A stretch of DNA of 64,000 bases from Polyangia bacterium (GCA_030429545.1 JAUIFF010000001.1:83599-147598); one strand, 5' to 3'. Shown: positions 23,922 to 64,000, counted from the stretch's first letter. A program made the numbers and translations. Notes: generated by a model not told the origin, from the sequence alone.

Positions 23922-24150
23922 ACAGGTCTAGCTTGTACTTCGGTACGTGATCGGCGTTGCGCCGCTCGAGCAAACTTCATCCCATTCATCACAAGGAAGG
24001 CTATTCCAGAATGTCGCTATCCCGAGAAGTACCCGTAGACGGCGACGGGCTGGAGCAACCTCGCGCATCGAAGTTCCGTACGCCGTCTACGGGTACTTCT
24101 CGGGGCGCATTCAGTGAGCCTTCCATGTCCCAGGTCTTGAGGTAGACTAC
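23922..24150 (+). ncRNA. candidate structured RNA element, copy 2 (paralogue of 20631-20862)
   Basis: Same conserved blocks. Variable helix with compensatory substitutions. Followed by a rho-independent terminator. Confidence 0.45.
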
Positions 24151-24184
24151 TTTCTCGCTACAAATTTTGGACGCTCTCATGCGG

Positions 24185-24228
24185 CCGGCAAAGCATCCCC
24201 CCTAAGAACGCTTTGCCGGTCCTTTTTA
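24185..24228 (+). terminator. rho-independent terminator
   Basis: ccggcaaagc-loop-gctttgccgg followed by tccttttt. Confidence 0.65.
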
Positions 24229-24329
24229 AATGGTTTTGGGCGCGCGGGTTCTTTTGGCCGTGAGACCGGCCCTGAGAAGCTTGCAGTAGGTGACTACAGC
24301 TTCGCTTCTCAGGGCTCGGTTCACGGCCA

Positions 24330-25400
24330 AAAGCCCTCCGCGAATCTTGGTGCGGGGTGTTCGGGAAGCGTAGGCGTTTGGTGTTCGGGAAGCGTAGCGG
24401 GAAGCGCGGGCGTTTTGGTGTTCGGGAAGCGTAGGCGTTTGGTGTTCGGGAAGCGTTTGGTGTTCGGGAAGCGTAGGGTCGCTAGGGTGCGGGTTTGGTG
24501 TTTGGGTAGCGCAGGCGTTTGGGGTAGCGCAGGCGTTTGGGGTTGTCGGGTAGCGCAGGCGTTTGGTGTTCGGGAAGCGTAGGGTCGCTAGGGTTCGGGT
24601 TTGGTGTTTGGGTAGCGCGGGTTCGGGAAGCGTAGGCGTTTGGTGTTCGGAACGCGTAGGCGTTTGGTGTTCGGGAAGCGTAGGCGGTGTTTGGGTAGCG
24701 CAGGCGATGGTTGGGTTGCGCGGGCGTTGGTGTTTGGCGCAGGCGTTTGGTGTTCGGGTTGGGTAGCGCGGGCGTGTTGGGGTAGCGCGGGGCGTTTGGT
24801 CGCGCGTGTTGGGCGTGTTGGGGTAGCGCGTGTTGGGCGTGTTGGGGCGTTTGGTCGGGTGTTGAGTCGCGCGGGCATGTTGGGCTAGCGCGGGTGTTTG
24901 GTCGGGGTTGGGTAGCGCGGGGCGTTTGGTCGCGGTTGGGTAGCGTGGGGTAGCGGAAGTTTGGCCGCAGCGTGGGGTTCGTTTGTAGTGGTTGGGGTAG
25001 CCGACATTGGTCGCAGGGGTGCGGGGTTCGTTTGGGTAGCGTGGGGGGTCGTTTGTAGTGGTTGGGGTAGCCGACATTGGTCGCAGGGTGCGGGGTTCGT
25101 TTGGGTAGCGCCGACGTTTGGCCGCAGGGTGGGGGTTCGTTTGTAGTAGTTGGTAGCGCCGTCGCTTGGTCGCAGGTGCGGGCCTCGTTTTGGGTGATGG
25201 TCGCGGTTGGGTCGCGCCGACGTTTGGTCGCAAGGTGCCGGCTTCGTTTTGGGTAGTGGTTGGGTGGCGTTTGGTCCGGCGGGGTTTCGTGTCGGGTAGC
25301 GCGGAAGTTTGGCCGCAGGGTGGGGTTCATTTGTAGTGGTTGGGTAGCCGACGTTTGGTCGCAGGGGGGCGGGGTTCGTTTGGGTAGCGCCGACGTTCCC
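24330..25400. repeat. ~1.1 kb degenerate G/T-rich tandem repeat (minisatellite-like)
   Basis: Units such as gcgtaggcgtttggtgttcgggaa and ggtagcgccgacgtttggccgcagggtgggggttcgtttgtagtggttg iterated head-to-tail. Strong strand asymmetry. No spacer periodicity. Confidence 0.8.
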
Positions 25401-25691
25401 GACTGGCTGTTGAGGGCCGGCCTCGACTGCTGTGCGACGTACTTCGCAGTTGCCTGTTCTTTTTGTGTGCCCCGGGGGAGCCGCTGGTCGTCGTTGGTCG
25501 GTTGTGCCGGTTTTCTATTGTGTCGGGGCGGACTTGCCTGCGGGCCTTGGTCTTGTTCAGTTGGTTCGTTCGATTGCCTCTGCTGTGAGGCCTGCTTCAC
25601 AGTTGATGGCTTTGGCGGGGATATTTTTACGGTCTGCGAGTTTGATGTACGGTGCACGTCGATCCGCTGCTGCGGTTCGAGGAGCAAGTCT

Positions 25692-26321
25692 GTGAAGCGA
25701 GTCCTGCGGGATGCTAGTCAAGCCTGGAACTTTTTTCGCAGTGGTTTTACCAGCTGGGAAACGACGGCTGCGTTCTTGCCGAGCCAGCGGTTTCTTGTGC
25801 GTACATTGGTTTCGGCGGCCCGCCTCAATGGGGCTCGCAATGTCGTTGAGCTCGGGCCGGGTTTGGGCCATGTCACCTCCAAAATCCTTGCTCGGATGGG
25901 TCACGACTGTCAGCTCTACAGCGTCGAGATCGATCCGGCGATGGTCGAGGCGATGGCGACCAAAGTTACCGATCCGCGACTTCACGTGATCGAAGGCGAT
26001 GCCGCCAAACTGCCGCAATTGCTCGAGCAGGCTGGTTGTACCGGGCCGGTCGACGCGGTGATTTCATCCCTCGGGATGAGCCTGTTGCCGCCGGAGGTGC
26101 GTGAGTCGATCTTTACGGGGATCAAAACGGTGCTCGCCCCTGGCAAGCCCTATGTGCAATACGCCTACTTCCATGCTCGGGTGATTGTGTGGACGGGCTC
26201 CCGTGGCTTTAGCCAGTTTAATATCCGTGAACACCTCGCGCCCCACTTTGGCCAAATGCAGCGCCAACTGGTGTTTGCCAACGTGCCTCCGGCCGCGGTT
26301 TATACCTGCAGCAACAGCTGA
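25692..26321 (+). CDS. class I SAM-dependent methyltransferase (phospholipid N-methyltransferase / rRNA adenine dimethylase-like fold)
   Basis: VELGPGLG SAM-binding motif I. GTG start proposed at 25692 because upstream sequence is repeat-derived. Confidence 0.65.
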   Translation: MKRVLRDASQAWNFFRSGFTSWETTAAFLPSQRFLVRTLVSAARLNGARNVVELGPGLGHVTSKILARMGHDCQLYSVEIDPAMVEAMATKVTDPRLHVIEGDAAKLPQLLEQAGCTGPVDAVISSLGMSLLPPEVRESIFTGIKTVLAPGKPYVQYAYFHARVIVWTGSRGFSQFNIREHLAPHFGQMQRQLVFANVPPAAVYTCSNS

Positions 26322-47270: not shown

Positions 47271-48899
47271 CTACTTGGCGTTTTTGAGGAACGTCCGGCG
47301 GTAACGGGCGATGCCCTGGGTCGGACCACAGACATAGATGGTGTCGTCGGGCTGAATCGAGAACGCATCATCGAACTCGAGCACCGTCTCCTCGCCACGC
47401 TCGATCGCCACGATCGAGCACCCGGTACGCCGCTGAACCCGGGCGCCAGTGGGGCTGTGACCGGCGAGCGAGCCCGCCTTGAGTTTGACGACTTTGATCC
47501 GGGTTTCGATGGCGACCGCACTCTCTTTGAGGAGGTGGTGGGACAGCATTTGGCCCGCGACATGACTGAGTGACAGGGCAAAGTCTGCACCGGCGCCGTG
47601 GATCCGGTTGACGTTTTCCCCGCGGTTGACCCGGGCGATCAAAACAGCCTCGGGCGAGAGTCCGCGGATGATCGAGATTGCAAACAGGGTGGCGCTGTCG
47701 CTGCTGAGGGCGACAATTACGGCCCGGGCTTCGACAATCCCGGCCTTCTCGAGCACGGCATGGTCGAGGGCGTCGCCGACAAAATCGACTCCCTCCCCCT
47801 CATCGCGATTGATCACCCGGGTTTCTTCGCCGGCATCGTGCAGCAGCTCGACCACCTTGCGCCCGACTTCGCCATAGCCGACCACCACAATTGGCCCCTT
47901 GCTCGGCAGGGGGCGGGCGAGGTCGGCGAGTTTTTTGAGTCGCTCGGGGCTGCCGATCGCGACAATAATTGTACCTGCAACGAGTCGATCCGAGGCCTGG
48001 GGTTGGGCCGAAAACTCTCCGCCTTGCCAAAAGCCGATGATGGTCGCGCCGGTTGTCCGCCGGAGGTTGACTTCGGCCAGGGTTTTGCCTGCCAGCGTAC
48101 TTTCGCGGTGGATTCGCAATTCGGCGACATCGAGGTGGCTACTGAGCTGGCGAATACCCGCGACCCGCGGGGTAATGCGTTCACTGGCCCGGGCTGCCAG
48201 GGCGGCGGCGAGGATATGCTGCGGCGTAAACACAACATTGGCACCGGCCCGGGTCATGGGGTGGCGGTGAAACGGATCTCTTGCAAGTGCAAGTATCTCA
48301 CCCTTAAAGCCAAATTGCCGGGCCGCGATGATCACCGCGCCATTGTCGTGGTCGGTACCGTTGGCGACAATGACACGACTGCGTTTGATCACCTCGGGTT
48401 CGGGGTCGCCGTCTTCGAGCCGGCCGTAGACAACTCGCACGCCGCGGTCGACGAGCCGCCGGGTTGTCGCCTCATCCTCCTCAAACACGACAGCCGGGAC
48501 CTTGGCCGCCTGCAGGCTGTCGAGCAGGGTCGCAACCGCCGGGCCCCAGCGATAGATCAGCACGTAGTTGCGCAGTTTGGGTATTTTGCGTGGCATTCGG
48601 CCCGAGAGGGTGTCCTCGAGCACCGGTACCAAATAAAGTGGTAATACAAAGAAAACCATCGACACACCCAAGAACTGGGCGAAGATCACCAGCAGCACCA
48701 TGGCCGGGTGGTGCCACTCGGCATCGGCTCCGTAGCCGGTGGATGTCAGGGTTTCTGACGCCCATTCGAGGCTCGACCAGAAGTCGCGCGGCCGGCCCTC
48801 GAGGTGGGTCATGCCGAGGCTGTAGATGAGCGCAAAGCCGACAACCACGATAGGCAGGATCAGGATGACCGGGCGCAGGCGTCGGAAGGTCGACGACAT
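47271..48899 (-). CDS. potassium channel with two RCK (TrkA-N/TrkA-C) domains
   Basis: Selectivity filter TLTSTGYGAD. Two TM helices. Rossmann GYGEVG and IVANGTDHDN RCK domains. Start may instead be 48980. Confidence 0.8.
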   Translation of the reverse strand: MSSTFRRLRPVILILPIVVVGFALIYSLGMTHLEGRPRDFWSSLEWASETLTSTGYGADAEWHHPAMVLLVIFAQFLGVSMVFFVLPLYLVPVLEDTLSGRMPRKIPKLRNYVLIYRWGPAVATLLDSLQAAKVPAVVFEEDEATTRRLVDRGVRVVYGRLEDGDPEPEVIKRSRVIVANGTDHDNGAVIIAARQFGFKGEILALARDPFHRHPMTRAGANVVFTPQHILAAALAARASERITPRVAGIRQLSSHLDVAELRIHRESTLAGKTLAEVNLRRTTGATIIGFWQGGEFSAQPQASDRLVAGTIIVAIGSPERLKKLADLARPLPSKGPIVVVGYGEVGRKVVELLHDAGEETRVINRDEGEGVDFVGDALDHAVLEKAGIVEARAVIVALSSDSATLFAISIIRGLSPEAVLIARVNRGENVNRIHGAGADFALSLSHVAGQMLSHHLLKESAVAIETRIKVVKLKAGSLAGHSPTGARVQRRTGCSIVAIERGEETVLEFDDAFSIQPDDTIYVCGPTQGIARYRRTFLKNAK

Positions 48900-49094
48900 G
48901 TCGCGGATTGTAACAGCTCGCACGGCGATGCCTGCCGCGATAGCCCCGGGTGGCGGGGCAAATTTGCGAGGGCCGGACACACCGTCTATGGTCGGACCGT
49001 TGGCAAGCGCACGGATCGGTGAAGGTCCGGTGCTCCCGCCCAGTTCGAGCCGGGAGGGGCCTCAAAATATATGCAAATACATGATTTTCGCCAA

Positions 49095-50933
49095 CTAGAG
49101 TGGACGCAGCTCGTCAACACCATATAGGTCGGCGTAGCGCCGGCGCACGCCAAAACACTCTGATGCCCGGCTGCACGATCTACAGGCAGGCGCCCGGATA
49201 AACTCACCCCCGTCGAAACCCTCGGGGATAGCCGCGAGGTGAAATTGCGACATCACATCGCCGGGGACCAGGCACAGCGGGATTCCACACATCGAATCAA
49301 ACCCCGCGACTTCGACCCCACGTGTACGCGCGATTTTCAGGCCGGCTTGGAGGTCGGGGAGGATCTCCCGGTAGCGCGGAATAAGCTCGGTGCTGTGCGG
49401 GACCATGTCGGTCGATGCTCCGACAAACGACACACAGATCGAAGCCTCGGGCCAGCGTGTGGCGACCATGTCGACATAGGCGGGAAACTCGTGGTGATTG
49501 CGGCGACAGAATACAAAGTTCAGCTGGGTTGTGACCGAAAATTTTGCAAGTACATCGATTCCCGCGAGGGTTTTGACATGGGTACCCGGCGCGGCCGTGA
49601 CCGCGTCGGAGGTTTGTGCGGTGGCCCCGTGTAGCGAAACAAACGCCCGTTGTAGGCCGGCGTCGACGAGTTCGCGGGTGCGGTGCTCGTCGGCCAACAA
49701 AATCGCGTTGGACTGGATTTCAATACTCGCTGCCCCGTGACTGCGGGCGAGGGCGATGTACTCGCGCAGCCGGGGGTTGAGGGTCGGCTCACCGCCCGAC
49801 AAAATCACATGCCCCGAATCCTGTGCAGCTGCAATAATCTCACGGCGGACCCGAGCCTCCGAAGCCGGTGGCAGGTGGGTGGAGACAAAGCAAAAATGGC
49901 ACGCCTGGTTGCAGTGAAAGTTGACCCGGATCGTGGTGCCACGCACCAGTACCCCGTCGTGGCGGGTGTAGAGCTCAGGCGTGACTAGCTCGCGCTCGAT
50001 CTGTTGTTCGACCGAGGCGATGATCGAAAGCCGCCGGCGGATCCGGTCGGCAGCAATCGGACGGGCAGCAAAGCCTGCCGCGGTCAGGTCTGTCGACGGT
50101 CCCGGGCAGCGGTCGAACACCCGGCAGTCTTCGCAGGTTGCTTGGTGCTGGTGCCCCGGGCGGTCTCGGCCCCCCGGTGTCAGCGAAAACAGATGGGCGA
50201 CCCGCCCCGGATGTTCAAAGGCACACGGGGGGATCGGCGGTTCATTTGCAAGTACAAGTGTAAGCCCATGCTGGCGACAGTCGCGGGCGAGCCCTTCGAC
50301 CACCGCACAGGCAGCGGGCAGCGGCAAGCAAGTGTCGGGGTGCGGGCTTTGGCGCGGGACCACGGCGATAACCCGCGACACCGGTAGTGAATGGGCCGCG
50401 ATTTGGGCCGGGATATCGACGACCGTGCAGGTGTTTTTGTGTGCGTCGTTGTGCTGCGTACCAACTGTTTGGCGGGTTATCGGCACGGTCAGGTCGACCT
50501 CGAGGCCCGCGGCGGCGAGGGCCCGGATCGCCGCGACGGTGCGTGTGTGACCTCCGACTTCACCCGTCACGGAGTCGGCCAGTGGGCCCCAGCCGGGCAT
50601 ATGCACCCGCACGCGGGTGAGCCCGGCACGCTTGAGGTTGGCCGCAAGTTCGGGGGTGATCCGGGTGGCATTGGTTTCGAGCTCAATCCCGCCGATCCCT
50701 CGCTTTTTTGCATAAGCAACAATGTCAACGAGATCGCGGCGCAGGGTTGGTTCGCCCCCGGTCACCACAAGTTGTTGACAGGCCTGCTCGGCCGCGTGGT
50801 CGAGCTGTTGCCGAAGCACCTGCGGACCGGCGACTTCTGGACGTTCGCGCTCGCGGCGGACATGACAAAACCGGCACCGATGGTTGCAGGTTTCGTTGGT
50901 GATGAGCTTGAACGTCCGCATGGCCCCAGGCAT
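49095..50933 (-). CDS. fused tandem radical SAM/SPASM enzyme (two complete rSAM modules in one polypeptide)
   Basis: Two CxxxCxxC clusters (CNHRCRFC, CNQACHFC), each followed by GGEPTL and a Cys-rich SPASM-like tail (CEDCRVFDRCPG, CRSCSRASEC). ATG 5 nt after the upstream kinase stop. Confidence 0.8.
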   Translation of the reverse strand: MPGAMRTFKLITNETCNHRCRFCHVRRERERPEVAGPQVLRQQLDHAAEQACQQLVVTGGEPTLRRDLVDIVAYAKKRGIGGIELETNATRITPELAANLKRAGLTRVRVHMPGWGPLADSVTGEVGGHTRTVAAIRALAAAGLEVDLTVPITRQTVGTQHNDAHKNTCTVVDIPAQIAAHSLPVSRVIAVVPRQSPHPDTCLPLPAACAVVEGLARDCRQHGLTLVLANEPPIPPCAFEHPGRVAHLFSLTPGGRDRPGHQHQATCEDCRVFDRCPGPSTDLTAAGFAARPIAADRIRRRLSIIASVEQQIERELVTPELYTRHDGVLVRGTTIRVNFHCNQACHFCFVSTHLPPASEARVRREIIAAAQDSGHVILSGGEPTLNPRLREYIALARSHGAASIEIQSNAILLADEHRTRELVDAGLQRAFVSLHGATAQTSDAVTAAPGTHVKTLAGIDVLAKFSVTTQLNFVFCRRNHHEFPAYVDMVATRWPEASICVSFVGASTDMVPHSTELIPRYREILPDLQAGLKIARTRGVEVAGFDSMCGIPLCLVPGDVMSQFHLAAIPEGFDGGEFIRAPACRSCSRASECFGVRRRYADLYGVDELRPL

Positions 50934-50938
50934 GGGTA

Positions 50939-52978
50939 TCACGACGCCGCGGTACGTGCCGCCGCAGGCTGCGGGTGCAGCCACAACACCAGGCAGTTGA
51001 TGGTGAGGCCACAATGGGCGGCCGACATTAGCCAAAACCGCAACTCGGGCTGGTAGGCGCTTACCACCAGTGCGGCCAAATAGCCCAGGCACGCCGGGAC
51101 CAGGCGTTTTGACACGCTGAGGGCCAACATCGAGGCAACCGAGAACCACAGAAAAAACAACAGTACTTGTAGCTGTGTCGGCGAGAGGTCGAGGGCGGCA
51201 CCAATGATCTGCAGGACAATCTGGGCAAACAACGTGAGCACCAGGGCTCCGGCAAAGCGCCGGTTGATCGCAGTTTGCAGCATGGCCTTGCGGGTGAGGA
51301 GCAACAGCACGCTGACCAGGACAAACGAGGCTACCGGCCACAACAACGCGACGGTGCGGTTGTCGGCCGTTGGCGAGGCGGCGCGAAAAAGCGGGGCCAC
51401 GGTAAAGGCCAGGCCAACGGCAACGATCAGGAGGCTCCGGGTACGACGCCCGGTCCCGGGGTCGAGGTCCCGACGGAGGCTGATGAGCTCGAGTGCCTGG
51501 GAACGCGCCGTCGCCAGTTGCTCGCTACGGGTGCGCAGCTCATCGGTCAAGCCGGTGGGGGGGTCGACAATCGCCTCGATCAGGGTCGACGCCGTCCGCA
51601 GGTCGCCGTGGCGCAGCTCAAACTCGGCGAGCGCGACATCGGCCTGTCGCAGGCCTGCCTGGGCAAGGGTGTTTTGTGGTTCGCGGGCGAGCGCCGTGCG
51701 AAAGCCAAACCGACACTCTCCGTGGGTGCTGTAGACGAGGCCACGGACCTCGTCGGGTTCGCCACCGTCGGCCCGCTCGCATAGTGCTTGTAGCTGCAAT
51801 AAGCTTGCCTGGGCCGTATCGAGGATTTGCTGGCGCCCGCGCGACTGCAGAAAGTTTTGCAGTTCGAGGCGAAGCGCCTGTGCCGAAGCGGGGCGGTTTT
51901 TGGGGTCGTAGTCGAGGGCGCGCCGGCAGATATCGGCAAGTTGTTCGGGGACATTTTCTCCGGCTATTTCGGGGGTCGAGCGCGTGACCTTGGCCAGGAC
52001 TTCCCGCGCACTGCCGCCGGCGTGGGGCGGGTGTCCGGCGAGCAGGCGAAACAGGGTGCTGCCGAGCAGGTAAATGTCGGTGTGCTTGCCAAGCCCGTGT
52101 GGGGCGGCCCCGGGGATCATTTCGGGGGCCATATACATCGGTGTACCTGCAACTTCGTGGGCATCCTTGGCCAGGGGAATGCGGCCATCAAAGTCGTGGT
52201 CGACACTCACGGCAATACCCCAGTCGAGTACGTAGACCTCGCCAAAACCTCCGACCATGACATTTTCGGGCTTGATGTCCCGGTGGATAATCCCGCGGCT
52301 GTGGGCGAAGTGCACGGCGTTGCAAACTTGCATCAAGATCCGCAGGTTCCACTCGAGCGGGTCGCTGGCGCCAAATTGGCGGGCAATCGCCTCGGGGTCG
52401 TCCATCAGCGCGTCCCACGACTGCCCCTCGATGCGCTTGAGCACGATCAGCGGCTCGCCATCGGCATTGAGGGCGATGTCGTGGATCGGCACGATGTTTG
52501 GATGTTCTAAAAGACCGGTAACCCAAGATTCGTGCACGAGCTTGAGCGCATCGACCGATACACCGGTTTCAAGTGCGGTCTCAGCCTGGTTTTGGGGGGT
52601 CGAGCGTTGGCGCAGGCGTTTGACCGCGACCGCCCGGCCGAGCGACGTCTGCACAGCTTCGCGAACCTCGCCCATGCCGCCGCGACCGAGAAGCTTGCCA
52701 AGCACGTACTGGGCGGTTTCGGTGTCGGCCTCGGTCGGCGCGGCCAGGCGAAACAGGCTTGAGGGCCGCAAAGTTGTTGCATCTGCATCAATATCGACAT
52801 CGAGCAGATCGACCCGGGCCAACCTGGCCATGGCGGCCCGGGTTCGTGCGTGGAGGCCTGCGCCTCCCTCCGGGGCAATGGTGCGGTCTAAACTGCCGGC
52901 GAGCGACGCCAAAATCGGCCGCGGGAATTCGGCCTGACCCGTGGCAATCGTCTCGTCGAATTCGGCAGTTTCGGGCAT
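50939..52978 (-). CDS. Ser/Thr protein kinase with C-terminal ~5-TM membrane domain
   Basis: GRGGMGEV...AVK, HRDIKPENV, DWG, APE motifs. C-terminal 160 aa strongly hydrophobic. Confidence 0.85.
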   Translation of the reverse strand: MPETAEFDETIATGQAEFPRPILASLAGSLDRTIAPEGGAGLHARTRAAMARLARVDLLDVDIDADATTLRPSSLFRLAAPTEADTETAQYVLGKLLGRGGMGEVREAVQTSLGRAVAVKRLRQRSTPQNQAETALETGVSVDALKLVHESWVTGLLEHPNIVPIHDIALNADGEPLIVLKRIEGQSWDALMDDPEAIARQFGASDPLEWNLRILMQVCNAVHFAHSRGIIHRDIKPENVMVGGFGEVYVLDWGIAVSVDHDFDGRIPLAKDAHEVAGTPMYMAPEMIPGAAPHGLGKHTDIYLLGSTLFRLLAGHPPHAGGSAREVLAKVTRSTPEIAGENVPEQLADICRRALDYDPKNRPASAQALRLELQNFLQSRGRQQILDTAQASLLQLQALCERADGGEPDEVRGLVYSTHGECRFGFRTALAREPQNTLAQAGLRQADVALAEFELRHGDLRTASTLIEAIVDPPTGLTDELRTRSEQLATARSQALELISLRRDLDPGTGRRTRSLLIVAVGLAFTVAPLFRAASPTADNRTVALLWPVASFVLVSVLLLLTRKAMLQTAINRRFAGALVLTLFAQIVLQIIGAALDLSPTQLQVLLFFLWFSVASMLALSVSKRLVPACLGYLAALVVSAYQPELRFWLMSAAHCGLTINCLVLWLHPQPAAARTAAS

Positions 52979-53030: not shown

Positions 53031-54239
53031 TCATTGCACCACTTCAAATGTGATGCCGGCCGCCTGCAAACGCTTAAGCAGGTGTGTGCCTAGGGCTGCC
53101 GCAGTCGTTGCAACACCTCCCTGCAATGGCAGTTCGTCACGCGCATGTACAAGTGTCAACGCTGACTCTGCAAGCATTTTGGAGGTTTCACCGTAACCCG
53201 GGTCGCCGCCGCGGACTTCGGTGACGACGCGCTCGTGCCCGCGGGTGCCGACGAACGTCACCTTAAACCAGTTGCGCTCACGCTGCGCCCGATTGGGCCC
53301 CTCGCCAGATGGCCGAAGGCGCAGGAGCAGACGCCGGGTGACAGCCAGTTGCGCGAGTGCGGTGACTGAGCCAACGCCGGCGAGCAGGGCCACGAGTTGG
53401 CGCAGGTTTTTTGTCTGCAAGTAGTGGTGGTACGAAAACGACTCGCCAAACGCATGTGGGGAGAGTTTGGCACTGCGGCGGACAACCAACGGGTCGATCG
53501 TGGGCATGGGCGTGACCCACCGGCCAATCGCCTCCGAAAAATGGATACCCCGCGGTTTGTTGCCCTTGGATTTGCGCCCACCGGTCCGCGGCTTGTTGCG
53601 AGCTTCGCGAAGCTTGCCCAAGTAGCGCACCAGCGATTGCCAGGTTCCACCCGAGGCGGTGCCCTTGGCCGCGACATAGCCGTCGATATGGATAGGCCCA
53701 CTGCCGCGGTCGATCAGTTGTTGGGCGCAAAACATCGCCCCCAGGTCGTGGGGGATCGAGTCGAACCCGCAGCAAGGGACCACCAGGGAGCCCGAGAGAA
53801 TTGCCCGCTCGTGGTAGCGCTCGATGATGCCGCCCCAAAAGTCGGGCTCGCCGGTGATGTCGACATAGTCTGTCCCATGGGTCACGCAGGCGGCCACCAG
53901 CGGCTCGCCGTGGATGGCGTAGGGCCCAACTGTTGTCAATACAACTTTGGTACTTCGTGCCATGTCCTCGAGTGCTTGCCGGTCATCGCTCGAAGCGACG
54001 ATCGGCGTGACGTCGGCGACTTCGGGCGCGATTGTGCTGAGGCGGGCCCGCAGCGACATGAGCTTGTCGAGGTTGCGGCCGGCAATGGTCCAGCGAACCT
54101 GCGAGAGCGGGACATTGGCGGCGAAGTACTCCGCGACCAGCGTACCGGTAAAGCCGGTTGCACCAAACACAACGACGTCGAGGGGACGCTCGGATTTGGG
54201 GCGGATGGTTGATTCGGAGGCCGAGTTTTGGCGGGACAT
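53031..54239 (-). CDS. saccharopine dehydrogenase NADP-binding domain protein (trans-enoyl-reductase-like)
   Basis: VVVFGATGFTG Rossmann motif. Sacchrp_dh-like architecture. 402 aa. Confidence 0.8.
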   Translation of the reverse strand: MSRQNSASESTIRPKSERPLDVVVFGATGFTGTLVAEYFAANVPLSQVRWTIAGRNLDKLMSLRARLSTIAPEVADVTPIVASSDDRQALEDMARSTKVVLTTVGPYAIHGEPLVAACVTHGTDYVDITGEPDFWGGIIERYHERAILSGSLVVPCCGFDSIPHDLGAMFCAQQLIDRGSGPIHIDGYVAAKGTASGGTWQSLVRYLGKLREARNKPRTGGRKSKGNKPRGIHFSEAIGRWVTPMPTIDPLVVRRSAKLSPHAFGESFSYHHYLQTKNLRQLVALLAGVGSVTALAQLAVTRRLLLRLRPSGEGPNRAQRERNWFKVTFVGTRGHERVVTEVRGGDPGYGETSKMLAESALTLVHARDELPLQGGVATTAAALGTHLLKRLQAAGITFEVVQ

Positions 54240-55395: not shown

Positions 55396-55469
55396 TTCGA
55401 CCACAATAGCCGGTGTGTCAATTTCTATCAATTTGAAATTACTAGTTTAAAAAAGTCGGATTGGAAAAG

Positions 55470-55495
55470 TGTAAAGTAAAGCTTGACACTTTACA
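55470..55495. promoter_or_regulatory. palindromic operator (TGTAAAGT-N10-ACTTTACA) embracing a TTGACA -35 box in a divergent AT-rich promoter region
   Basis: tgtaaagtaaagcTTGACActttaca lies in the only AT-rich stretch for several kb. Confidence 0.5.
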
Positions 55496-55517
55496 TGTGG
55501 TCCGACATGATTCGCCT

Positions 55518-56717
55518 ATGGCATCGCAAACCTGGTTCACCCGACGGCTACAACAGGCCCGACGTGACTTCTCGATGTTGGTCGAGGGCTTTCGCGCGAG
55601 CAAACCCCCGTCGTTTCAAGTGCGAAGCGCCCGACGGTTTTCCCAAAGCCCAAGGCCGGTTGCCCAACCACTTGCGCCGGTGCGCTTGCCCGGTTTGCGA
55701 GAGTTGCGGGTGGTCGAGGTTATCGACGAAACACCCAATGCTCGCAGCTTTGCTCTGCTCGACCCCAACAACGCCCCAATCGAGTTTGTCCCGGGTCAAT
55801 TTTTGACGGTCGAAGTCGAAGTTGAGGGCCAGCGGCTCCGGCGGGCGTACTCACTTTCAAGCCGTGCAGGTGAGGGGCCAGCGACAATCACGGTCAAGCG
55901 TGTTGCCGGAGGCCGGGTGTCGAACTACCTCAACGACAATTTGCGGGTTGGCGACCACCTGCGTGTGTTGGGACCTTCGGGTGATTTCGGGGCCACGCCC
56001 TCGGAGGTTGCCGGGCGCTTGGTGTGTATTGCCGGCGGTAGCGGGATCACGCCGATCATGTCGGTTGTGCGTACATGGATTTGCCAGGGGCAGGGGGAGG
56101 TCCATTTGGTGTACGGCAACCGCAACCCGAGCGAGACGATCTTTTTTGACGAGCTGTCGCGGTTGCAAGCGGACTACAAAAAGTTGCATGTGCACCATGT
56201 TTGGGAGGACGGGGGCGAGGAAGGTAGCCTTGCAGGTCGCCTCGATGTCGCCAACCTCACGGCAGTTTTTACTACCCTGGGTGGTGTTGGTGGTGACGAC
56301 CTGTTTTTGGTCTGTGGGCCAGAGCCGATGATGGCGGCCGCACGGTCGTACCTCCTCGACGCAGGAATCGAGCCCACGCAAATCCGCGAAGAGAAGTTTA
56401 GCCAGCCACACCTGCGCAGCGCCGATGCACAAGCCCATGAACATGCACTGGTGTCGATTCGGGTGGGTGAGACCACCAAGACCGTGACCGTCAAGGGTGG
56501 GCAAACCCTGCTCGAAGCAGGCCTCGACGCCGGGCTGACAATGCCGTTTAGCTGTGCCATGGGCGGTTGTGGTGCCTGTCGGGTGCGCGTGGTCGAGGGC
56601 GTTGTGACGGCCGAAGAACCCAACTGCCTGACACCCGAAGAGCGGGCCGGCGGCTATACGCTTGCCTGTGTCGGGCGCCCCAACGGACCGTGCCAAATCG
56701 CTGTGGAGGGCGCATAA
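55518..56717 (+). CDS. FNR-type oxidoreductase (FAD/NAD(P)-binding) with C-terminal 2Fe-2S ferredoxin domain
   Basis: RAYSLSS FAD motif, GGSGITP NAD motif, Cys cluster C..MGGCGAC.V. Start at MASQTWF, since the upstream ORF part covers the operator. Confidence 0.8.
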   Translation: MASQTWFTRRLQQARRDFSMLVEGFRASKPPSFQVRSARRFSQSPRPVAQPLAPVRLPGLRELRVVEVIDETPNARSFALLDPNNAPIEFVPGQFLTVEVEVEGQRLRRAYSLSSRAGEGPATITVKRVAGGRVSNYLNDNLRVGDHLRVLGPSGDFGATPSEVAGRLVCIAGGSGITPIMSVVRTWICQGQGEVHLVYGNRNPSETIFFDELSRLQADYKKLHVHHVWEDGGEEGSLAGRLDVANLTAVFTTLGGVGGDDLFLVCGPEPMMAAARSYLLDAGIEPTQIREEKFSQPHLRSADAQAHEHALVSIRVGETTKTVTVKGGQTLLEAGLDAGLTMPFSCAMGGCGACRVRVVEGVVTAEEPNCLTPEERAGGYTLACVGRPNGPCQIAVEGA

Positions 56718-57464
56718 ATGGCTGCCCGCAAAGTCGATCGCTCACGGTTCCCCTACCGCATGAAAGACCTGTGCAAAGCGACAGGTCTCGATCGCCAGAC
56801 GATTCACTTTTACATCTCAAAGGGCCTGGTGCCCGAGGGGCATAAGACCGGGCGCAACATGGCCTACTACGGCGACGAGCACCTCGATCGCCTGCGGTTG
56901 GTGCGTCGCCTACAACACGAACGGTTCTTGCCGCTCAAGGCGATTCGCGGGCTGCTCGACGGCGACATTGCCGGGTTTACGAGTGAGCAACAGGGCCTGC
57001 TGCGCGACCTTAAAACCCGGCTCGCGCCGGTGGTGGGCCAGCCGACCGAGGTCGCCGATGCCGTGGCTGTCGACCCCCTACTTGCGCGGCACGAGATTCG
57101 CCTCGACGAGTTGCAAACCCTGGACAAAATGGGGTTGTGCAACTTGATTGAGCGGGATGGACAGTTTTTCTTGCCACCGTCGGACACCTGGGTTGTCGAG
57201 GTTTGGGGCCAGTTGCGGGCGGCTGGACTGACCGAGGAGCTCGGCTTTACGGCGGCCGACTTGCAAGTACATGAAAAAGCCGTGTCCCAACTTTTTGCCC
57301 ATGAGACCGAGCTGATCCTCGGCCGCTTGGGCCACCTCCCCGCCGAGCAGATTGCCAGCGTGATCGCCCGGGCATTGCCGGCGATCAATTCACTCCTCAC
57401 CCATTACCACCTGGCCAAGGCGCGCAACCTGCTGGCCGCGGTTCCCGAAGTTCAAGCAAATTAG
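56718..57464 (+). CDS. MerR family transcriptional regulator
   Basis: N-terminal HTH YRMKDLCKATGLDRQTIHFYISKGLV. ATG immediately after the preceding stop. Confidence 0.75.
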   Translation: MAARKVDRSRFPYRMKDLCKATGLDRQTIHFYISKGLVPEGHKTGRNMAYYGDEHLDRLRLVRRLQHERFLPLKAIRGLLDGDIAGFTSEQQGLLRDLKTRLAPVVGQPTEVADAVAVDPLLARHEIRLDELQTLDKMGLCNLIERDGQFFLPPSDTWVVEVWGQLRAAGLTEELGFTAADLQVHEKAVSQLFAHETELILGRLGHLPAEQIASVIARALPAINSLLTHYHLAKARNLLAAVPEVQAN

Positions 57465-57474
57465 GTGTATCAGC

Positions 57475-58695
<1,221 letters not shown>

Positions 58696-58934
58696 CCTGC
58701 AATCCGGGTGAGGTCTCAACGTCTCGCCGGCCAAGGGGCGTTTTGGGCTCGGGTCCGGCCCCCGGGATAGGTGTGGCCAGACATTGTTTTTACACCGTTG
58801 TATGTGAAACTTTTGCGTCCAAGCGGAGGTCTGGGTAGGTAGTGATTTCACCTGTTTCGCGGCAAAAAAACGTACGCGCGTTCTCGACATTGCCCCGGTA
58901 GAAGGTGCATAATCCTGAGACAAAGGGATTCCAA

Positions 58935-59897
58935 ATGAAACAAACATACCTACCGTTGCTCCTTTCGAGTGTGTTTTTGTTCGCATGTGGCGACAAAGGC
59001 GGTGAAACCGACGCAACTGCGACGGCTGGCCCGACCGGCGACATGACGACCGGCGACGACACCACCACAACCGGAACCCCGACGACCACCGATCCCGGTC
59101 CGGGAACGGACACGGATGGCACAACTGCCGATCCGACCACGACGACGACAACCGATCCAACCACCACGACGTCCGACTCGGACACCGAGTCGTTCCTCGT
59201 CGATCCCGATGTCGACATGGCGACCGAGTGCGATATCTGGTCGTTCGACGATTGCCCCGATGGGCAAAAATGTATGCCGTGGGCGAACGACGGCGGGTCT
59301 TCGTGGAACGCGACCAAGTGTGTCGATATCCAAGACAACCCCGGCGCCGACGGTGATGCCTGTAACACCATTGGTAGTGGTGTCAGCGGTGAAGACACCT
59401 GCGACAATCACCTGTTTTGCTACTACACCAACGACGAGGGCTCGGGTGTGTGCGTGCCGATGTGCGTGGGCAGCCCCGAAAACAAGATGTGCGAGGACCA
59501 GGAGGCCGTGTGTTCGGTTTCCAACGACGGTGTGCTCATCCTGTGCCGCAAGAAGTGTGACCCGCTGTTGCAGGACTGCGATTACCCGGTCGACACCGCG
59601 TGCCTTCCGGCCGCCGGCAGCAACTCGTTTGTCTGTATCGCCGACGCCTCGGGTGATGCCGGCATGCCCGGCGATCCGTGCGAGTTCCTCAACGCCTGTG
59701 ACCCGGGCAACTACTGCGAGGGCGCCGACATCGTGCCGAACTGCCAGGGTGGCATCGGCTGCTGCACCCCGTTTTGCGACGTCAACGACGACAACTGTGA
59801 TCAGCTGGTCCCCGGAACCGTGTGCACGCCGTGGTACGGCGAAGAAAACCCCGAGCCGGGCTACGAGCACGTCGGTGGGTGCACATTGCCGCAGTAA
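58935..59897 (+). CDS. secreted lipoprotein with Thr-rich linker and Cys-rich C-terminal domain
   Basis: Signal with lipobox VFLFACGD. TTTTDPTTTT linker. More than 30 Cys in the C-terminal 200 aa. Confidence 0.6.
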   Translation: MKQTYLPLLLSSVFLFACGDKGGETDATATAGPTGDMTTGDDTTTTGTPTTTDPGPGTDTDGTTADPTTTTTTDPTTTTSDSDTESFLVDPDVDMATECDIWSFDDCPDGQKCMPWANDGGSSWNATKCVDIQDNPGADGDACNTIGSGVSGEDTCDNHLFCYYTNDEGSGVCVPMCVGSPENKMCEDQEAVCSVSNDGVLILCRKKCDPLLQDCDYPVDTACLPAAGSNSFVCIADASGDAGMPGDPCEFLNACDPGNYCEGADIVPNCQGGIGCCTPFCDVNDDNCDQLVPGTVCTPWYGEENPEPGYEHVGGCTLPQ

Positions 59898-60003: not shown

Positions 60004-61410
60004 TCACATACTAGCCGGCAAGCGGCGACGAACGGTTGCCATCACCGGCCCGCGCGGGCGAAGTGTGACCCGACCTTGCAGCGGGATGTCTCGCAGCTTG
60101 GCTTCGGGCTCAAACCGCAGGTTTTGGGCCAGGGTCGCCAACACCAAAATGGCTTCCATGCGCGCAAAGTGGTTGCCAATACAAATACGTGCACCGCCGC
60201 CAAACGGGAAGTAGGCAAACCGTGGGAGCTGTTGCTCCAATCCGTCGAACCAGCGACCCGGGTCAAACGTTTCGGGGTGGGGAAACCACCGAGGGTCACG
60301 CTGGGTATGTAGCTGGGCGAAATACAACTGGGCACCCTTGGGGATCGGGACGCCGGCGACTTCGCAATCTCGCAGCGCTTCGCGGCCGATCGCCCAGGCC
60401 GGCGGATACAGCCGCATGGTCTCGAGCACAACGGCCTCGGTGTAGCGCAGTTGGGGAAGGGTCTCCAACGTAGGTGGCTCGCCCGCGAGAACATTGTCGA
60501 GCTCGGCGACCAACTGTGCATATACACCAGGGTGTTCGGCCAGGAGGATAAAGGCAAACGTGAGGGCGAGGGCAGTGGTTTCGTGGCCCGCCGAAAACAT
60601 CGTCACCGCCTCGTCCCGCAGTTGGCCGATTTCCATGGGCTTGCCGTCCTCGTCCCGGGCAGCGAGCAGGCGTGACAGGAGGTCGTCGCCGAGGTTTTGC
60701 CGACGTCGCTCGATCATGGCATCGACGGTCCCGCGCAGACGGTCCCGCGCCTGCATAAACTCGCGTGTCATCGGAATAACCCCGCCGAGCATCGACCGTA
60801 GATAGGCGCGGTTGGAGGCCTGGAGTTGTTCGATCGCCGTCCCGATAGCCTCGGTAATTTCCTCACCGCCGTCACCTAGATCGAGGTCAAATAGGGTTTT
60901 CACGACGATCTCGAGGGTGAGCTGCATCATCACCGCGTGGATGTCGACCCGCGAGCTGTCGCCTAGGTCAGCCTGGATTTTTGATGCAAATGCAACCATT
61001 TGGGAGGCATAGTTGGCGATCTGTCCACGCCGCAGCGGCGGGGCAGCGAGTTTGCGTTGACGTCGCCAAAAGTTGCCTTCGCTCACCAGCAACCCATTGC
61101 CGAGAACCTCCGAGAGCATCCGCGTGGATGCGTCTTTGATAAACCCATCGGCGCGGGTGAGCAGAACTTCCTCGATCGCGGATGGTTGGTAAAATATGTA
61201 ACAGGGGACAGGTCCAAAGTAGAACATCACGACGTCGCCATAGCGGCGACAGTCGGCAAAGAAGTCGAGTTCGCTGCCGACCATACGCGAGATGTTTGAG
61301 AGTGGTCCCCGCGGGCCCGGTGGGTGCTGTCCACTGATTGCTGGGCGCAGTAGGGGAGGGCAGCGCTCGGCGATTCGCTGGCGAACGCGTTGAAGGCGGG
61401 CACGCAACAT
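60004..61410 (-). CDS. cytochrome P450
   Basis: Heme-binding loop FGGGARICIG, EXXR (ETMR), PERF-like region. 468 aa. Confidence 0.9.
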   Translation of the reverse strand: MLRARLQRVRQRIAERCPPLLRPAISGQHPPGPRGPLSNISRMVGSELDFFADCRRYGDVVMFYFGPVPCYIFYQPSAIEEVLLTRADGFIKDASTRMLSEVLGNGLLVSEGNFWRRQRKLAAPPLRRGQIANYASQMVAFASKIQADLGDSSRVDIHAVMMQLTLEIVVKTLFDLDLGDGGEEITEAIGTAIEQLQASNRAYLRSMLGGVIPMTREFMQARDRLRGTVDAMIERRRQNLGDDLLSRLLAARDEDGKPMEIGQLRDEAVTMFSAGHETTALALTFAFILLAEHPGVYAQLVAELDNVLAGEPPTLETLPQLRYTEAVVLETMRLYPPAWAIGREALRDCEVAGVPIPKGAQLYFAQLHTQRDPRWFPHPETFDPGRWFDGLEQQLPRFAYFPFGGGARICIGNHFARMEAILVLATLAQNLRFEPEAKLRDIPLQGRVTLRPRGPVMATVRRRLPASM

Positions 61411-61561: not shown

Positions 61562-62590
61562 CTAGGCCGGTACCGGCACAAACTCGTCCCAGCCGTTGCG
61601 TCGCAGGTAGTTGCCCCACACGCCCTCGCACACGGGGTTGTAGCGACAGCTGTCGCACTCTGGCCGCTTGCGGCGCTGGTTGTCATCGAGGTCGCCGCGG
61701 CGAATTTGGACGAGCTCACCACTTTGTCCGGCTGCTCGCGACTGCGGGTCGACATCCTGCAAGAGGGCTGCATTGACCTCGTTGGGCGGCTCAAAGTGGA
61801 CGTAGTCCTCGACGTAACCGCGGTTGAAGTCGGGAATGCCGGTGGTCGTACAAAGCGGGATGTCGACCAAAAACGCCATGACCTCGTGTTCGCGCTGGTA
61901 CTGCTCTTGAAAGAAGGTGCGCGCCTGGTCGGCGATTTCGGTGTAGCTCGGGAACAGCTGCTCGAAGTAGGTGTTGGCCCGGCCGTTGGCCTGCATCACG
62001 TTAAACACAACCTGGTCAACACCATGCATACGCAAGAATCGGTAAATCTCACCCATGTAGGGGAGGTTGCGTTTAGTGATCACCGTGCTGGTGTGGAGGG
62101 TGACGCCGTAGGGCTTGAGGCTGGTGACCATGTCGAGCCCAGCCACGGTTTGGGCAAAGCTCTTGGGCGTGCGTGTGAGGCCCTCGTGGAGCTTTTTGGT
62201 GTGCCCGTGAATCGAGATGTAAAACCGATTCATCCCGCGGGCGACAAGCATCTTGGCGTAGCGCTCGTAGCTCAGCGCGCGACCATTGGTCATCATGCTG
62301 ACCATACGAGCGCCCGCAGTCTTGGCCATCCGCACCCAATGCGGTAACCGAGGATTGGTCGTGGGCTCGCCGGAGGTGAAGCAGACTTCTTCGAACGCGT
62401 TGTGCTGGCGCAGAATCCAGGCGACAGACTCGTCGGTCGTGGCGGAGTTGGTGACGTAGCGAGCGTCACGGTCCTCCTCCATACAGAAGATGCAGTTGTT
62501 ATTACAAATCGCGCCCGTCAGGATATGAACCCGAGGGGCGCGGTTTGTGATCCGCTGCTCGATGGACTCCGGTTGCAACGGGTACTCCAC
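61562..62590 (-). CDS. radical SAM/SPASM-domain maturase (HxsB/HxsC-like)
   Basis: CNNNCIFC cluster and C-terminal Cys-rich CDSCRYNPVCEGVW. GTG start 21 nt after the HGS-repeat peptide gene. Confidence 0.8.
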   Translation of the reverse strand: MEYPLQPESIEQRITNRAPRVHILTGAICNNNCIFCMEEDRDARYVTNSATTDESVAWILRQHNAFEEVCFTSGEPTTNPRLPHWVRMAKTAGARMVSMMTNGRALSYERYAKMLVARGMNRFYISIHGHTKKLHEGLTRTPKSFAQTVAGLDMVTSLKPYGVTLHTSTVITKRNLPYMGEIYRFLRMHGVDQVVFNVMQANGRANTYFEQLFPSYTEIADQARTFFQEQYQREHEVMAFLVDIPLCTTTGIPDFNRGYVEDYVHFEPPNEVNAALLQDVDPQSRAAGQSGELVQIRRGDLDDNQRRKRPECDSCRYNPVCEGVWGNYLRRNGWDEFVPVPA

Positions 62591-62611: not shown

Positions 62612-62968
62612 CTACCAGGATCCGTGAGAACCGTGGGAGCCGTGGGAGCCGTGGGAGCCGTGGGAGCCGTGGGAACCGTGGGAGCCGTGAGACCCGTGGG
62701 AGCCGTGAGACCCGTGGGAGCCGTGAGACCCGTGAGACCCGTGAGATCCGTGAGACCCGTGAGACCCGTGAGAACCATGCGAACAGTGGCCCGAGTCCCC
62801 AGGCCCTACCATGACCGTGGTCAGTGACATACTCGCCGGCCCAGCATCGGCGTAGAGTCGGGCCTTGTCGGATATTTCCCGCTGGCCCTTGCTCAGCACT
62901 GGTCCCTTGCGGGTGAACGTCGGGAGAGCGTTCAGATCGTCGGTTGCCTTTCCATCACTCTTCGCCAT
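62612..62968 (-). CDS. His-Gly-Ser repeat precursor peptide (HxsA-like; ~60-aa leader + (HGS)x18)
   Basis: MAKSDGKATDDLNALPTFTRKGPVLSKGQREISDKARLYADAGPASMSLTTVMVGPGDSGHCSHGSHGSH...GSW. Encoded by 9-bp tandem repeats (GGCTCCCAC on the coding strand). GAGGA RBS 7 nt upstream. Confidence 0.7.
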   Translation of the reverse strand: MAKSDGKATDDLNALPTFTRKGPVLSKGQREISDKARLYADAGPASMSLTTVMVGPGDSGHCSHGSHGSHGSHGSHGSHGSHGSHGSHGSHGSHGSHGSHGSHGSHGSHGSHGSHGSW

Positions 62969-63386: not shown

Positions 63387-64000
63387 CTACGAGGCTGCGT
63401 TGGCGGGCTCGCTGTCCTGGACGAAGTGTTCGCGCGCACGAATCGTCGTCCATTTCTCGAAAATATCGAGTAGCTCCTGATCGGCGGTGGCAATTTTTTC
63501 AAACAGGAAATCCTGGATTCCCTTGTGCACCGCACACACGTTGTTTTCTCGCATGCGGCCAAAAATGCTGCCCTGGGCCTTGTGATTGGTGGCCGAAATG
63601 GTGCCGCAGTAGGGGTTGTAGGCACAGTTCACGCAGTCGGGTTGGGAGTCGAGGTTCGAGGCCAACACCATCGCCCGCACGGTTTCGTGGCCGACGAGCT
63701 CGCGGTAGGTGTGGGTATCGACATGTCCCAAGTGAAAGGTGTCCTCACCCATGGCGTACAGCATGCGCCCCTCGTCGCAGGTAAAAACCTTGCCGTCGAA
63801 GCTGTAGGCGAGCTGGCCAACACCGGCACCGGCCGGGCTGCGCAGGTCGAGGAAGTTGGGGTCCTGACCCTGCAAAATTTTGGTGAGGAAGATGCCGGCA
63901 AACCGCTCTAAGACCTCGACACCCTGGCGGTTGAGCTCGATCATGTAGTTGACCGCGTTGCGGTAGAACTCGAGGTATGCGCTGCGTGGGTATTCGATTT
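63387..64000 (-). CDS. second radical SAM/SPASM-domain protein (3' part; gene continues beyond the window end)
   Basis: SPASM-like motifs CVNCAYNPYCG and CAVHKG. Reading frame stays open upstream of the listed Met to the window edge. Confidence 0.65.
   Translation of the reverse strand, partial: IEYPRSAYLEFYRNAVNYMIELNRQGVEVLERFAGIFLTKILQGQDPNFLDLRSPAGAGVGQLAYSFDGKVFTCDEGRMLYAMGEDTFHLGHVDTHTYRELVGHETVRAMVLASNLDSQPDCVNCAYNPYCGTISATNHKAQGSIFGRMRENNVCAVHKGIQDFLFEKIATADQELLDIFEKWTTIRAREHFVQDSEPANAAS

Follow-up and report, generated by a model that had tools for sequence, protein, structure and literature searches.

The tandem radical S-adenosylmethionine (rSAM) protein examined here is encoded on the minus strand of a 64,000-nucleotide (nt) stretch of DNA from a Polyangia bacterium (GCA_030429545.1 JAUIFF010000001.1:83599-147598), referred to below as the window. 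It joins two rSAM modules in one polypeptide of 612 amino acids (aa) and is a member of a large, mainly myxobacterial family that is uncharacterised and listed in databases as 'radical SAM protein'. On balance, it is probably a stand-alone tandem HxsC-like enzyme that acts in trans on a substrate encoded elsewhere, its pairing with an upstream serine/threonine (Ser/Thr) kinase gene being specific to one lineage. An earlier note on this DNA had seen in the kinase and rSAM genes a coupled unit of possible peptide-modifying or signalling function. Its observations were largely right, except for a SPASM assignment, the supposed rarity of the fusion and the exact distance between the two genes; its interpretation is partly supported. 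The kinase, rSAM and potassium channel open reading frames (ORFs) lie on the minus strand exactly where that note placed them, and with the gene upstream and a promoter match they are as follows (TM, transmembrane):

53031-54239, minus strand: SDH1, a saccharopine-dehydrogenase-like NADP-binding protein (PF03435, 43.5 bits)
50939-52978, minus strand: Hanks-type Ser/Thr kinase, 679 aa (ORF call and Pfam)
49095-50933, minus strand: tandem rSAM protein, 612 aa from the first ATG (ORF call and two PF04055 stretches)
49066-49094, minus strand: sigma-70-like promoter match, TTGGCG-17 nt-TATATT (consensus match only)
47271-48899, minus strand: 2-TM K+ channel, 542 aa (ORF call, Pfam and TM segments)

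The tandem protein belongs to the radical SAM superfamily twice over: the Pfam profile PF04055 matches it in two stretches (141.7 bits, above the gathering score), and each module carries a CX3CX2C and a GGEP motif. The N-module occupies residues ~1-300 and the C-module residues ~337-612, with a conserved linker at ~296-336, and the two modules are 32% identical over 146 aa. Both CX3CX2C and both GGEP motifs are conserved across an alignment of 24 sequences, comprising the window protein and 23 homologues of 46-72% identity. The cysteine motifs, with their conservation in this alignment, are:

50865-50888, minus strand: N-module rSAM cluster motif CNHRCRFC (C16, C20 and C23), at least 90% conserved
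50106-50135, minus strand: N-module auxiliary motif CEDCRVFDRC (C267, C270 and C276), invariant
49890-49913, minus strand: C-module rSAM cluster motif CNQACHFC (C341, C345 and C348), invariant
49155-49184, minus strand: C-module auxiliary motif CRSCSRASEC (C584, C587 and C593), invariant, followed by the tail FGVRRRYADLYGVDELRPL

Also invariant are C237 in the N-module (nt 50223-50225) and, in the C-module, C476, C549 and C554, the latter two in the motif CGIPLC (nt 49272-49289). The four N-module cysteines C237, C267, C270 and C276 would suffice for one auxiliary cluster. Because the CX3CX2C, GGEP and auxiliary cysteine motifs are conserved, both modules look catalytically competent, each with an auxiliary-cluster motif. 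The previous description of two complete rSAM modules, with cysteine motifs at residues 16-23, 267-276, 341-348 and 584-593, is borne out. An AlphaFold2 model built from the alignment has a predicted local distance difference test score (pLDDT) of 89.1 and a predicted template modelling score (pTM) of 0.84.

The modules had also been described as rSAM/SPASM modules, which does not hold. A SPASM domain is defined here by PF13186/TIGR04085 together with the seven-cysteine motif CX9-15GX4C...CX2CX5CX3C...C. PF13186 gives no match to the whole protein at E<=0.01, the isolated Cys-rich tails match no Pfam family even at E<=10, and TIGR04085 is absent among the NCBIfam matches listed for the protein. 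In both tails CX2CX5C is followed by PGPS or FGVR, with no CX3C. The SPASM assignment of the tails is ruled out by the lack of a profile match and by the missing CX3C continuation. Compared with the SPASM maturases anSME, PqqE and MftC, the CX2CX5C resembles the core of the seven-cysteine motif and the rSAM cores match at 33-63 bits, but the tails lack the SPASM profile match and the CX3C and contain fewer cysteines. Each tail appears to be twitch-like or partial-SPASM and, judging from its cysteine pattern, should hold one auxiliary Fe-S cluster.

Fused tandem rSAM proteins, previously thought rare, are common in Myxococcota. Among 1.84 billion 50%-identity representatives, searched exhaustively, 349 clusters match at E<=1e-30, mostly from this phylum; many are colinear over both modules and some lie within proteins of 1000-1500 aa. 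The best 120 database matches are all ~600 aa long and 46-69% identical at 99% coverage, and come from Nannocystaceae, Polyangium, Sandaracinaceae, Paraliomyxa, Archangium and similar metagenome-assembled genomes (MAGs). A literature search found no publication on the tandem family, the HXS paper discussed below alone being relevant. The protein is a tandem-fusion form of the HxsC-like rSAM enzymes, and such sequences are already in databases.

Neither the whole protein nor either of its halves reaches the cut-off of any NCBIfam model. HxsC4 (NF038332) scores 127 bits over the whole protein, 92.4 on the C-module and 45 on the N-module, against a cut-off of 500; HxsC (TIGR03977) scores 105.7, 69.5 and 40.1 bits, against a cut-off of 267.9. 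These two are nevertheless the best named NCBIfam matches for the C-module, the HxsC alignment covering positions 30-288 of 292, whereas the best named match for the N-module is archaeal MoaA (70 bits; cut-off 325). The C-module is 25% identical, end to end, to the HxsC4 encoded in the same window, and IPLC and CxxCx5C.G..Y...G.DE..P align. Housekeeping assignments (MoaA, AhbD, PqqE, NirJ and others) are ruled out by scores far under their cut-offs, and the outcome that the earlier note had named as a refutation, that the halves belong to housekeeping rSAM families, was not found by profile search.

HxsC4 and HxsC are thus likened to the C-module by end-to-end alignment, IPLC, the C-terminal CxxCx5C, the G.DE..P tail and the best profile matches, and in context by a cassette 8.6 kb off and by an enrichment of HXS parts near orthologues. 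The tandem protein differs from them in that it fuses two modules, scores far below the cut-offs, is not adjacent to HxsB, HxsA or HxsD, and has an N-module that is HxsC-like weakly (40-45 bits). Searches of the PDB, by structure with Foldseek and by sequence profile, returned half-length generic rSAM matches only, at 12-21% identity, the best being BlsE (67 bits; Foldseek E 4e-10), GDGT-MAS, MoaA, SkfB and viperin; neither search found a two-module relative in the PDB. BlsE (7vob), MoaA (1tv7) and SkfB (6efn) have in common a partial TIM-barrel rSAM core and, after it, a short Cys-rich stretch expected to hold one auxiliary cluster, but the identity is 17-21% over about one half and none of the three is a tandem fusion. 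Their substrates (cytosylglucuronate, GTP and the SkfA peptide) are not transferable to the tandem protein.

FbiC, a fusion of CofG and CofH, is a single polypeptide whose two complete rSAM domains work in turn on one intermediate of a pathway. The tandem protein likewise has two complete rSAM domains in a single chain but no sequence relationship to FbiC, whose domains lack the C-terminal CX2CX5C; FbiC, CofG and CofH models are absent among the NCBIfam matches listed for it. FbiC is mentioned in PMC11917521.

Along the strand, SDH1 and the kinase gene are separated by 52 nt, the kinase and rSAM genes by 5 nt, and the rSAM and channel genes by 195 nt. In the 24-sequence alignment, homologues of the rSAM protein begin MRxxxxTNETCN, and the two closest syntenic relatives begin MRTFKL. 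This makes Met5 (ATG at 50921) the probable true start in the window, and it would widen the kinase-rSAM gap to 17 nt; the 5-nt spacing given earlier is correct for the first ATG and not for this probable start. With a gap of 5-17 nt and a common strand, the kinase and rSAM genes are likely co-transcribed, and SDH1, which keeps its place in three related loci (L006, L060 and L062), may be co-transcribed with them. The channel gene, in contrast, would be a separately transcribed syntenic neighbour: the AT-rich 195-nt gap before it contains one sigma-70-like site (0.2 expected from shuffles), which by consensus match agrees with the suggestion that the channel probably has its own AT-rich promoter.

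The gene context was compared across 51 genome loci, further loci reached through individual proteins, and the window (loci are numbered with the prefix L). Four of them bear on the kinase, with identities to the window proteins:

L006 (a Nannocystaceae MAG): MerR, FNR, SDH2like, SDH1, rSAM, channel, FabH and a second kinase; rSAM 69%, channel 91% and SDH1 80% identical
L062: SDH2like-SDH1-kinase-channel, without the rSAM gene; kinase 46% and channel 59% identical
L060: kinase, then the start of the rSAM gene; kinase 61% identical
L145: kinase, then the rSAM gene, whose start lies 22 nt past the kinase stop; rSAM 67% and kinase C-terminus 59% identical

Kinase and rSAM genes are adjacent only in the window, L060 and L145, all from one Nannocystaceae sub-clade; none of the ~50 other orthologue loci has an adjacent kinase, so that the pair is not conserved across the enzyme family. 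In L006, SDH1 and the rSAM gene are 118 nt apart and no kinase lies there. Each gene fills the same slot without the other in L006 and L062, and the pair thus appears to have arisen in one evolutionary event, to have been retained in one sub-clade and to have been lost at least once. Further kinases of this family lie in an unrelated PrpD-permease-RecQ context, and kinase-domain density in orthologue loci is 0.85 per 100 kb. The idea of a coupled system, which was to stand or fall by conservation of the linkage, is largely refuted: the juxtaposition is a lineage-specific and dispensable one and not a conserved kinase-controlled system. The rSAM gene would be a stand-alone unit that moves between contexts and that, in this sub-clade, came to lie behind a membrane Ser/Thr kinase in a block of the form MerR-FNR, SDH2like-SDH1-kinase-[rSAM]-K channel. 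With the linkage specific to one lineage, the neighbouring kinase and channel add little.

At other orthologue loci, the only recurrent immediate neighbours are further rSAM proteins, found at 14 of ~48 loci; all that were compared with NCBIfam are HxsC-like. Among these neighbours are single-module proteins, a ~655-aa twitch-rSAM match and triple fusions. Clustering of 513 flanking ORFs and phmmer searches with the immediate neighbours revealed no conserved partner outside the rSAM proteins, and in 48 loci the orthologues are flanked neither by a conserved small ORF nor by a tripeptide-repeat ORF. At the window locus, the gaps of 5, 52 and 195 nt leave no room for a precursor ORF, and Pfam identifies no recognition element for a ribosomally synthesised and post-translationally modified peptide (RiPP), no protease and no transporter. 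This agrees with the earlier remark that no obvious precursor peptide is visible nearby.

Upstream of the block lies a type-4 His-Xaa-Ser (HXS) cassette, its components being:

61562-62590, minus strand: HxsC4, a single-module rSAM paralogue of the C-module (NF038332, 620 bits; cut-off 500)
62612-62968, minus strand: HxsA4, 118 aa, HCS followed by 18 HGS repeats and ending in W (NF038313, 91 bits; cut-off 55)
63387-64000, minus strand: C-terminal part of HxsB, the gene running off the window end (TIGR03978, 229 bits, a partial match over profile positions 284-466)

According to a 2026 report on an antiphage system, both cleavage of the HxS-repeat effector HxsA and its +8 Da modification require HxsB and HxsC (PMC13128918). 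The cassette in the window has the complete order HxsB-HxsA4-HxsC4, and the nearer end of HxsC4 is 8.6 kb from the kinase start. Between the tandem rSAM gene and the cassette lie 8.6-11.7 kb and nine unrelated genes, and no HxsD was seen inside the 64-kb window. By position, the tandem rSAM gene is thus not an HXS component, lying outside an operon of either the HxsD-HxsB-HxsC-HxsA (PMC13128918) or the HxsB-HxsA4-HxsC4 type.

HXS genes recur near orthologues elsewhere. HxsC4, 60-64% identical to that of the window, lies within 10 kb of the orthologue in L014 (612 bits), L015 and L035 (585 bits), and other HXS parts occur within the same distance in L011 and L031 (HxsA4), L052 (HxsB, 570 bits) and L060 (HxsC4). 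In the reverse direction, 80 HxsC4 loci from metagenomes were inspected. The order HxsB-HxsA4-HxsC4 recurs, apart from a few inversions, in the dozens of these with enough flanking DNA, and an orthologue is present in three of the 80 (L069, L091 and L142) within the available DNA. Proximity of HXS genes and orthologues is estimated at ~50-100 times that expected in both directions, if there is one copy per ~10-Mb genome. Even so, the link is loose and non-obligatory. The earlier suggestion of a peptide-modifying system acting in trans with the HXS genes ~9 kb away is the best remaining lead, given the full-length likeness of the C-module to HxsC4/HxsC and the enrichment of HXS parts.

Several observations weigh against a stand-alone HxsC-like enzyme acting in trans. 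The C-module's HxsC and HxsC4 scores (70 and 92 bits) are far under the cut-offs (268 and 500), and the best solved relatives, beside the RiPP maturase SkfB, are mostly small-molecule or lipid enzymes (BlsE, GDGT-MAS, MoaA and viperin). No orthologue is present in the available DNA of 77 of the 80 HxsC4 loci, most orthologue loci have no HXS part, and the HXS link could stem from past paralogue duplication or from regional synteny. Several orthologue neighbourhoods are carbohydrate- or lipid-like (rSAM-GFO_IDH, DegT, PMT_2 and NAD-epimerase). The kinase-rSAM pair, finally, has persisted over ~35-40% protein divergence in one clade, where there may be a local functional tie. The main rival explanation, which we consider possible if somewhat unlikely, is a small-molecule rSAM enzyme with no HXS connection that carries out two radical reactions (such as dehydrogenation, decarboxylation, epimerisation or C-C coupling) on a sugar, cyclitol, nucleotide, lipid or cofactor intermediate from enzymes encoded elsewhere. 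Besides the solved relatives just named, the single auxiliary-cluster motif points this way, resembling that of twitch enzymes such as BtrN, BlsE and MoaA; so do the ~1000-aa rSAM+GFO_IDH fusions, DegT aminotransferase, PMT_2 glycosyltransferase and NAD-epimerases among the neighbours, the Rossmann-type SDH-like genes upstream in the window, and the lack of an adjacent precursor ORF. However, the C-module finds its top named profiles, aligned over their full length, in two protein maturases, HxsC4 and HxsC, and the surroundings of orthologues are enriched in HXS parts. Moreover, not one gene of a small-molecule pathway is conserved as a neighbour, and the fold matches span the generic rSAM core of one half only.

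The kinase could alternatively sense an envelope or membrane signal and phosphorylate the tandem enzyme or its substrate, the whole forming a signalling or redox unit possibly tied to K+ flux via the RCK channel. The short gap on a common strand with likely co-transcription, the order kept in L060 and L145 at ~60-67% protein identity, and the intact catalytic motifs of the kinase are consistent with such a unit, which is nonetheless unlikely: L006 has the block and the rSAM gene without the kinase, L062 has the kinase and the channel but lacks the rSAM gene, none of ~50 further orthologue loci has a kinase next to the rSAM gene, the kinase family has members in unrelated contexts, and the channel stands behind a 195-nt gap with its own promoter-like site. 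Least probable by far is a second RiPP cluster with an overlooked local precursor. General knowledge favours it, as rSAM enzymes with auxiliary clusters are typical RiPP maturases, but the intergenic gaps are too short for a precursor gene, the 48 orthologue loci contain no conserved small ORF, and a recognition element, protease and transporter are all missing.

For a stand-alone enzyme acting in trans, the two fused modules would form a covalent pseudo-dimer with two active sites, which could carry out two radical steps on one substrate. By analogy with HxsB/HxsC, radical modification of a protein or peptide encoded elsewhere would be its most likely role. HxsA4, the poly-His-Gly-Ser protein encoded 11.7 kb upstream, is the best single candidate substrate on the same analogy, although a doubtful one. 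It is conceivable, but improbable, that the single, double and triple HxsC-like rSAM proteins of Myxococcota make up an expanded maturation toolkit for HxsA4, an elaborated type-4 HXS for phage defence or metal binding, in which the tandem enzyme adds further or iterative radical modifications in trans and the membrane Ser/Thr kinase gates it in this Nannocystaceae lineage. Hundreds of divergent HxsC-like modules, in double and triple fusions, occur in myxobacteria, some of them near an HxsA4 with ~19 HGS repeats. Should the tandem enzymes act on HxsA4, they would offer a richer and perhaps more tractable system for HxsB/HxsC chemistry; if they do not, they are one more uncharacterised rSAM family.

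Among the rSAM neighbours of orthologues are triple-rSAM proteins of 982 aa (L014:3941-6889) and 1041 aa (L015:4867-7992), each with three HxsC/MoaA-like modules, whose genes lie 6-8 kb from the HxsC4 gene. The same two genes, from Minicystis rosea and Byssovorax, lie 3-4 kb upstream of the tandem-rSAM orthologue, with a 655-aa gene between. A ~760-aa protein (L018:7647-9923; also in L009, L016, L020 and L032) combines an unknown N-terminal region, an HxsC-like rSAM core and a C-terminal plant-type 2Fe-2S ferredoxin domain, which may be a built-in electron donor. Its gene is directly upstream of the orthologue in L009, L016 and L018 and adjacent in L020 and L032, on the opposite strand or downstream. 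Tandem-rSAM-like proteins of ~1000 aa or longer adjoin orthologues at L003:4931-7939 and L011:12569-15556 and in L010, L025 and L026. Those of L003 and L011 were confirmed as rSAM fused to a GFO_IDH_MocA or inositol-dehydrogenase-like domain, which hints at carbohydrate or cyclitol chemistry. In L059 (GCA_975901815.1), the orthologue stands among six other rSAM genes, one with a B12-binding domain, together with a PMT_2 (ArnT-like) glycosyltransferase and a DegT aminotransferase.

Other genes adjoin the HXS parts. Next to HxsA4 in L011 (2-2878) and L031 is a gene for a ~900-aa protein made of Cys-rich acidic myxo_disulf_rpt repeats, with an unknown ~700-aa protein on the other side. Ser/Thr kinase genes adjoin HxsC4 in L086/L087 (~4207-5088), L090 (~3516-4388) and L015 (20746-21818). 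These amount to 3-4 independent loci, slightly above the ~1-2% per neighbour expected at the given kinase density, numbers too small to judge; a general kinase-HXS link was not adopted on 3-4 cases against this background. In the window, two genes lie between HxsC4 and the rest of the block. One (58905-59897, plus strand) encodes a probable lipoprotein rich in Cys and in Thr/Asp, and the other (60004-61410, minus strand) a cytochrome P450 weakly like terpene oxygenases and the RiPP P450 ApyO, all below cut-off.

The window kinase has a Pkinase domain (PF00069) at residues 91-370 (nt 51869-52708; 127.7 bits, cut-off 31.7) with intact motifs: the G-loop GRGGMG98, VAVK117, HRDIKPEN232, DWG252 (a DFG variant) and APE. 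Hydropathy places a C-terminal membrane domain of ~5-6 TM helices, four strong and one or two weaker, at residues 516-670 (nt 50969-51433). The profile together with the G-loop, Lys, HRD and DFG-type motifs makes it a Hanks-type Ser/Thr kinase, and the C-terminal ~5-TM domain attributed to it earlier is confirmed. Its family, of ~640-680 aa, is widespread in Myxococcota, the matches spanning 84-92% of the query and reaching well past the kinase domain. Two PADLOC models for defence kinases match it (PD-T4-6, 199 bits; mad6, 178 bits) in a region confined to the kinase domain (residues 81-388); with NCBIfam MADS6 the score is 102 bits (cut-off 460), and none of the partner genes of PD-T4-6 or mad6 is present. 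A PADLOC defence-system assignment was not adopted, the matches being only to the generic kinase domain and the viperin core.

The channel protein has the filter TSTGYG at residues 52-57 (nt 48729-48746), between TM helices at residues 11-29 and 68-86. Its RCK units match TrkA_N (97.5 bits) and TrkA_C (76.6 bits) in two stretches each, above the cut-offs, while the pore profile Ion_trans_2 reaches 16.3 bits, below its cut-off of 22.5. A TxGYG filter, two TM helices and RCK domains characterise it as an RCK-gated 2-TM K+ channel of the MthK/TrkA type, in accordance with the two RCK domains recognised before.

At 55461-58695, the plus strand carries a conserved trio of genes, for a PaaE-like FAD/NAD/2Fe-2S reductase, for a MerR regulator and for a 406-aa protein that weakly matches AurF or R2-like di-iron oxygenases. 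The trio is syntenic in L060, L062 and, to the contig end, L006, and is probably a separate oxygenase unit. The window also contains a strong composition anomaly at 24001-26000, where one 2-kb bin has a GC skew of +0.31 and an AT skew of -0.40, compared with ~+/-0.05 elsewhere.

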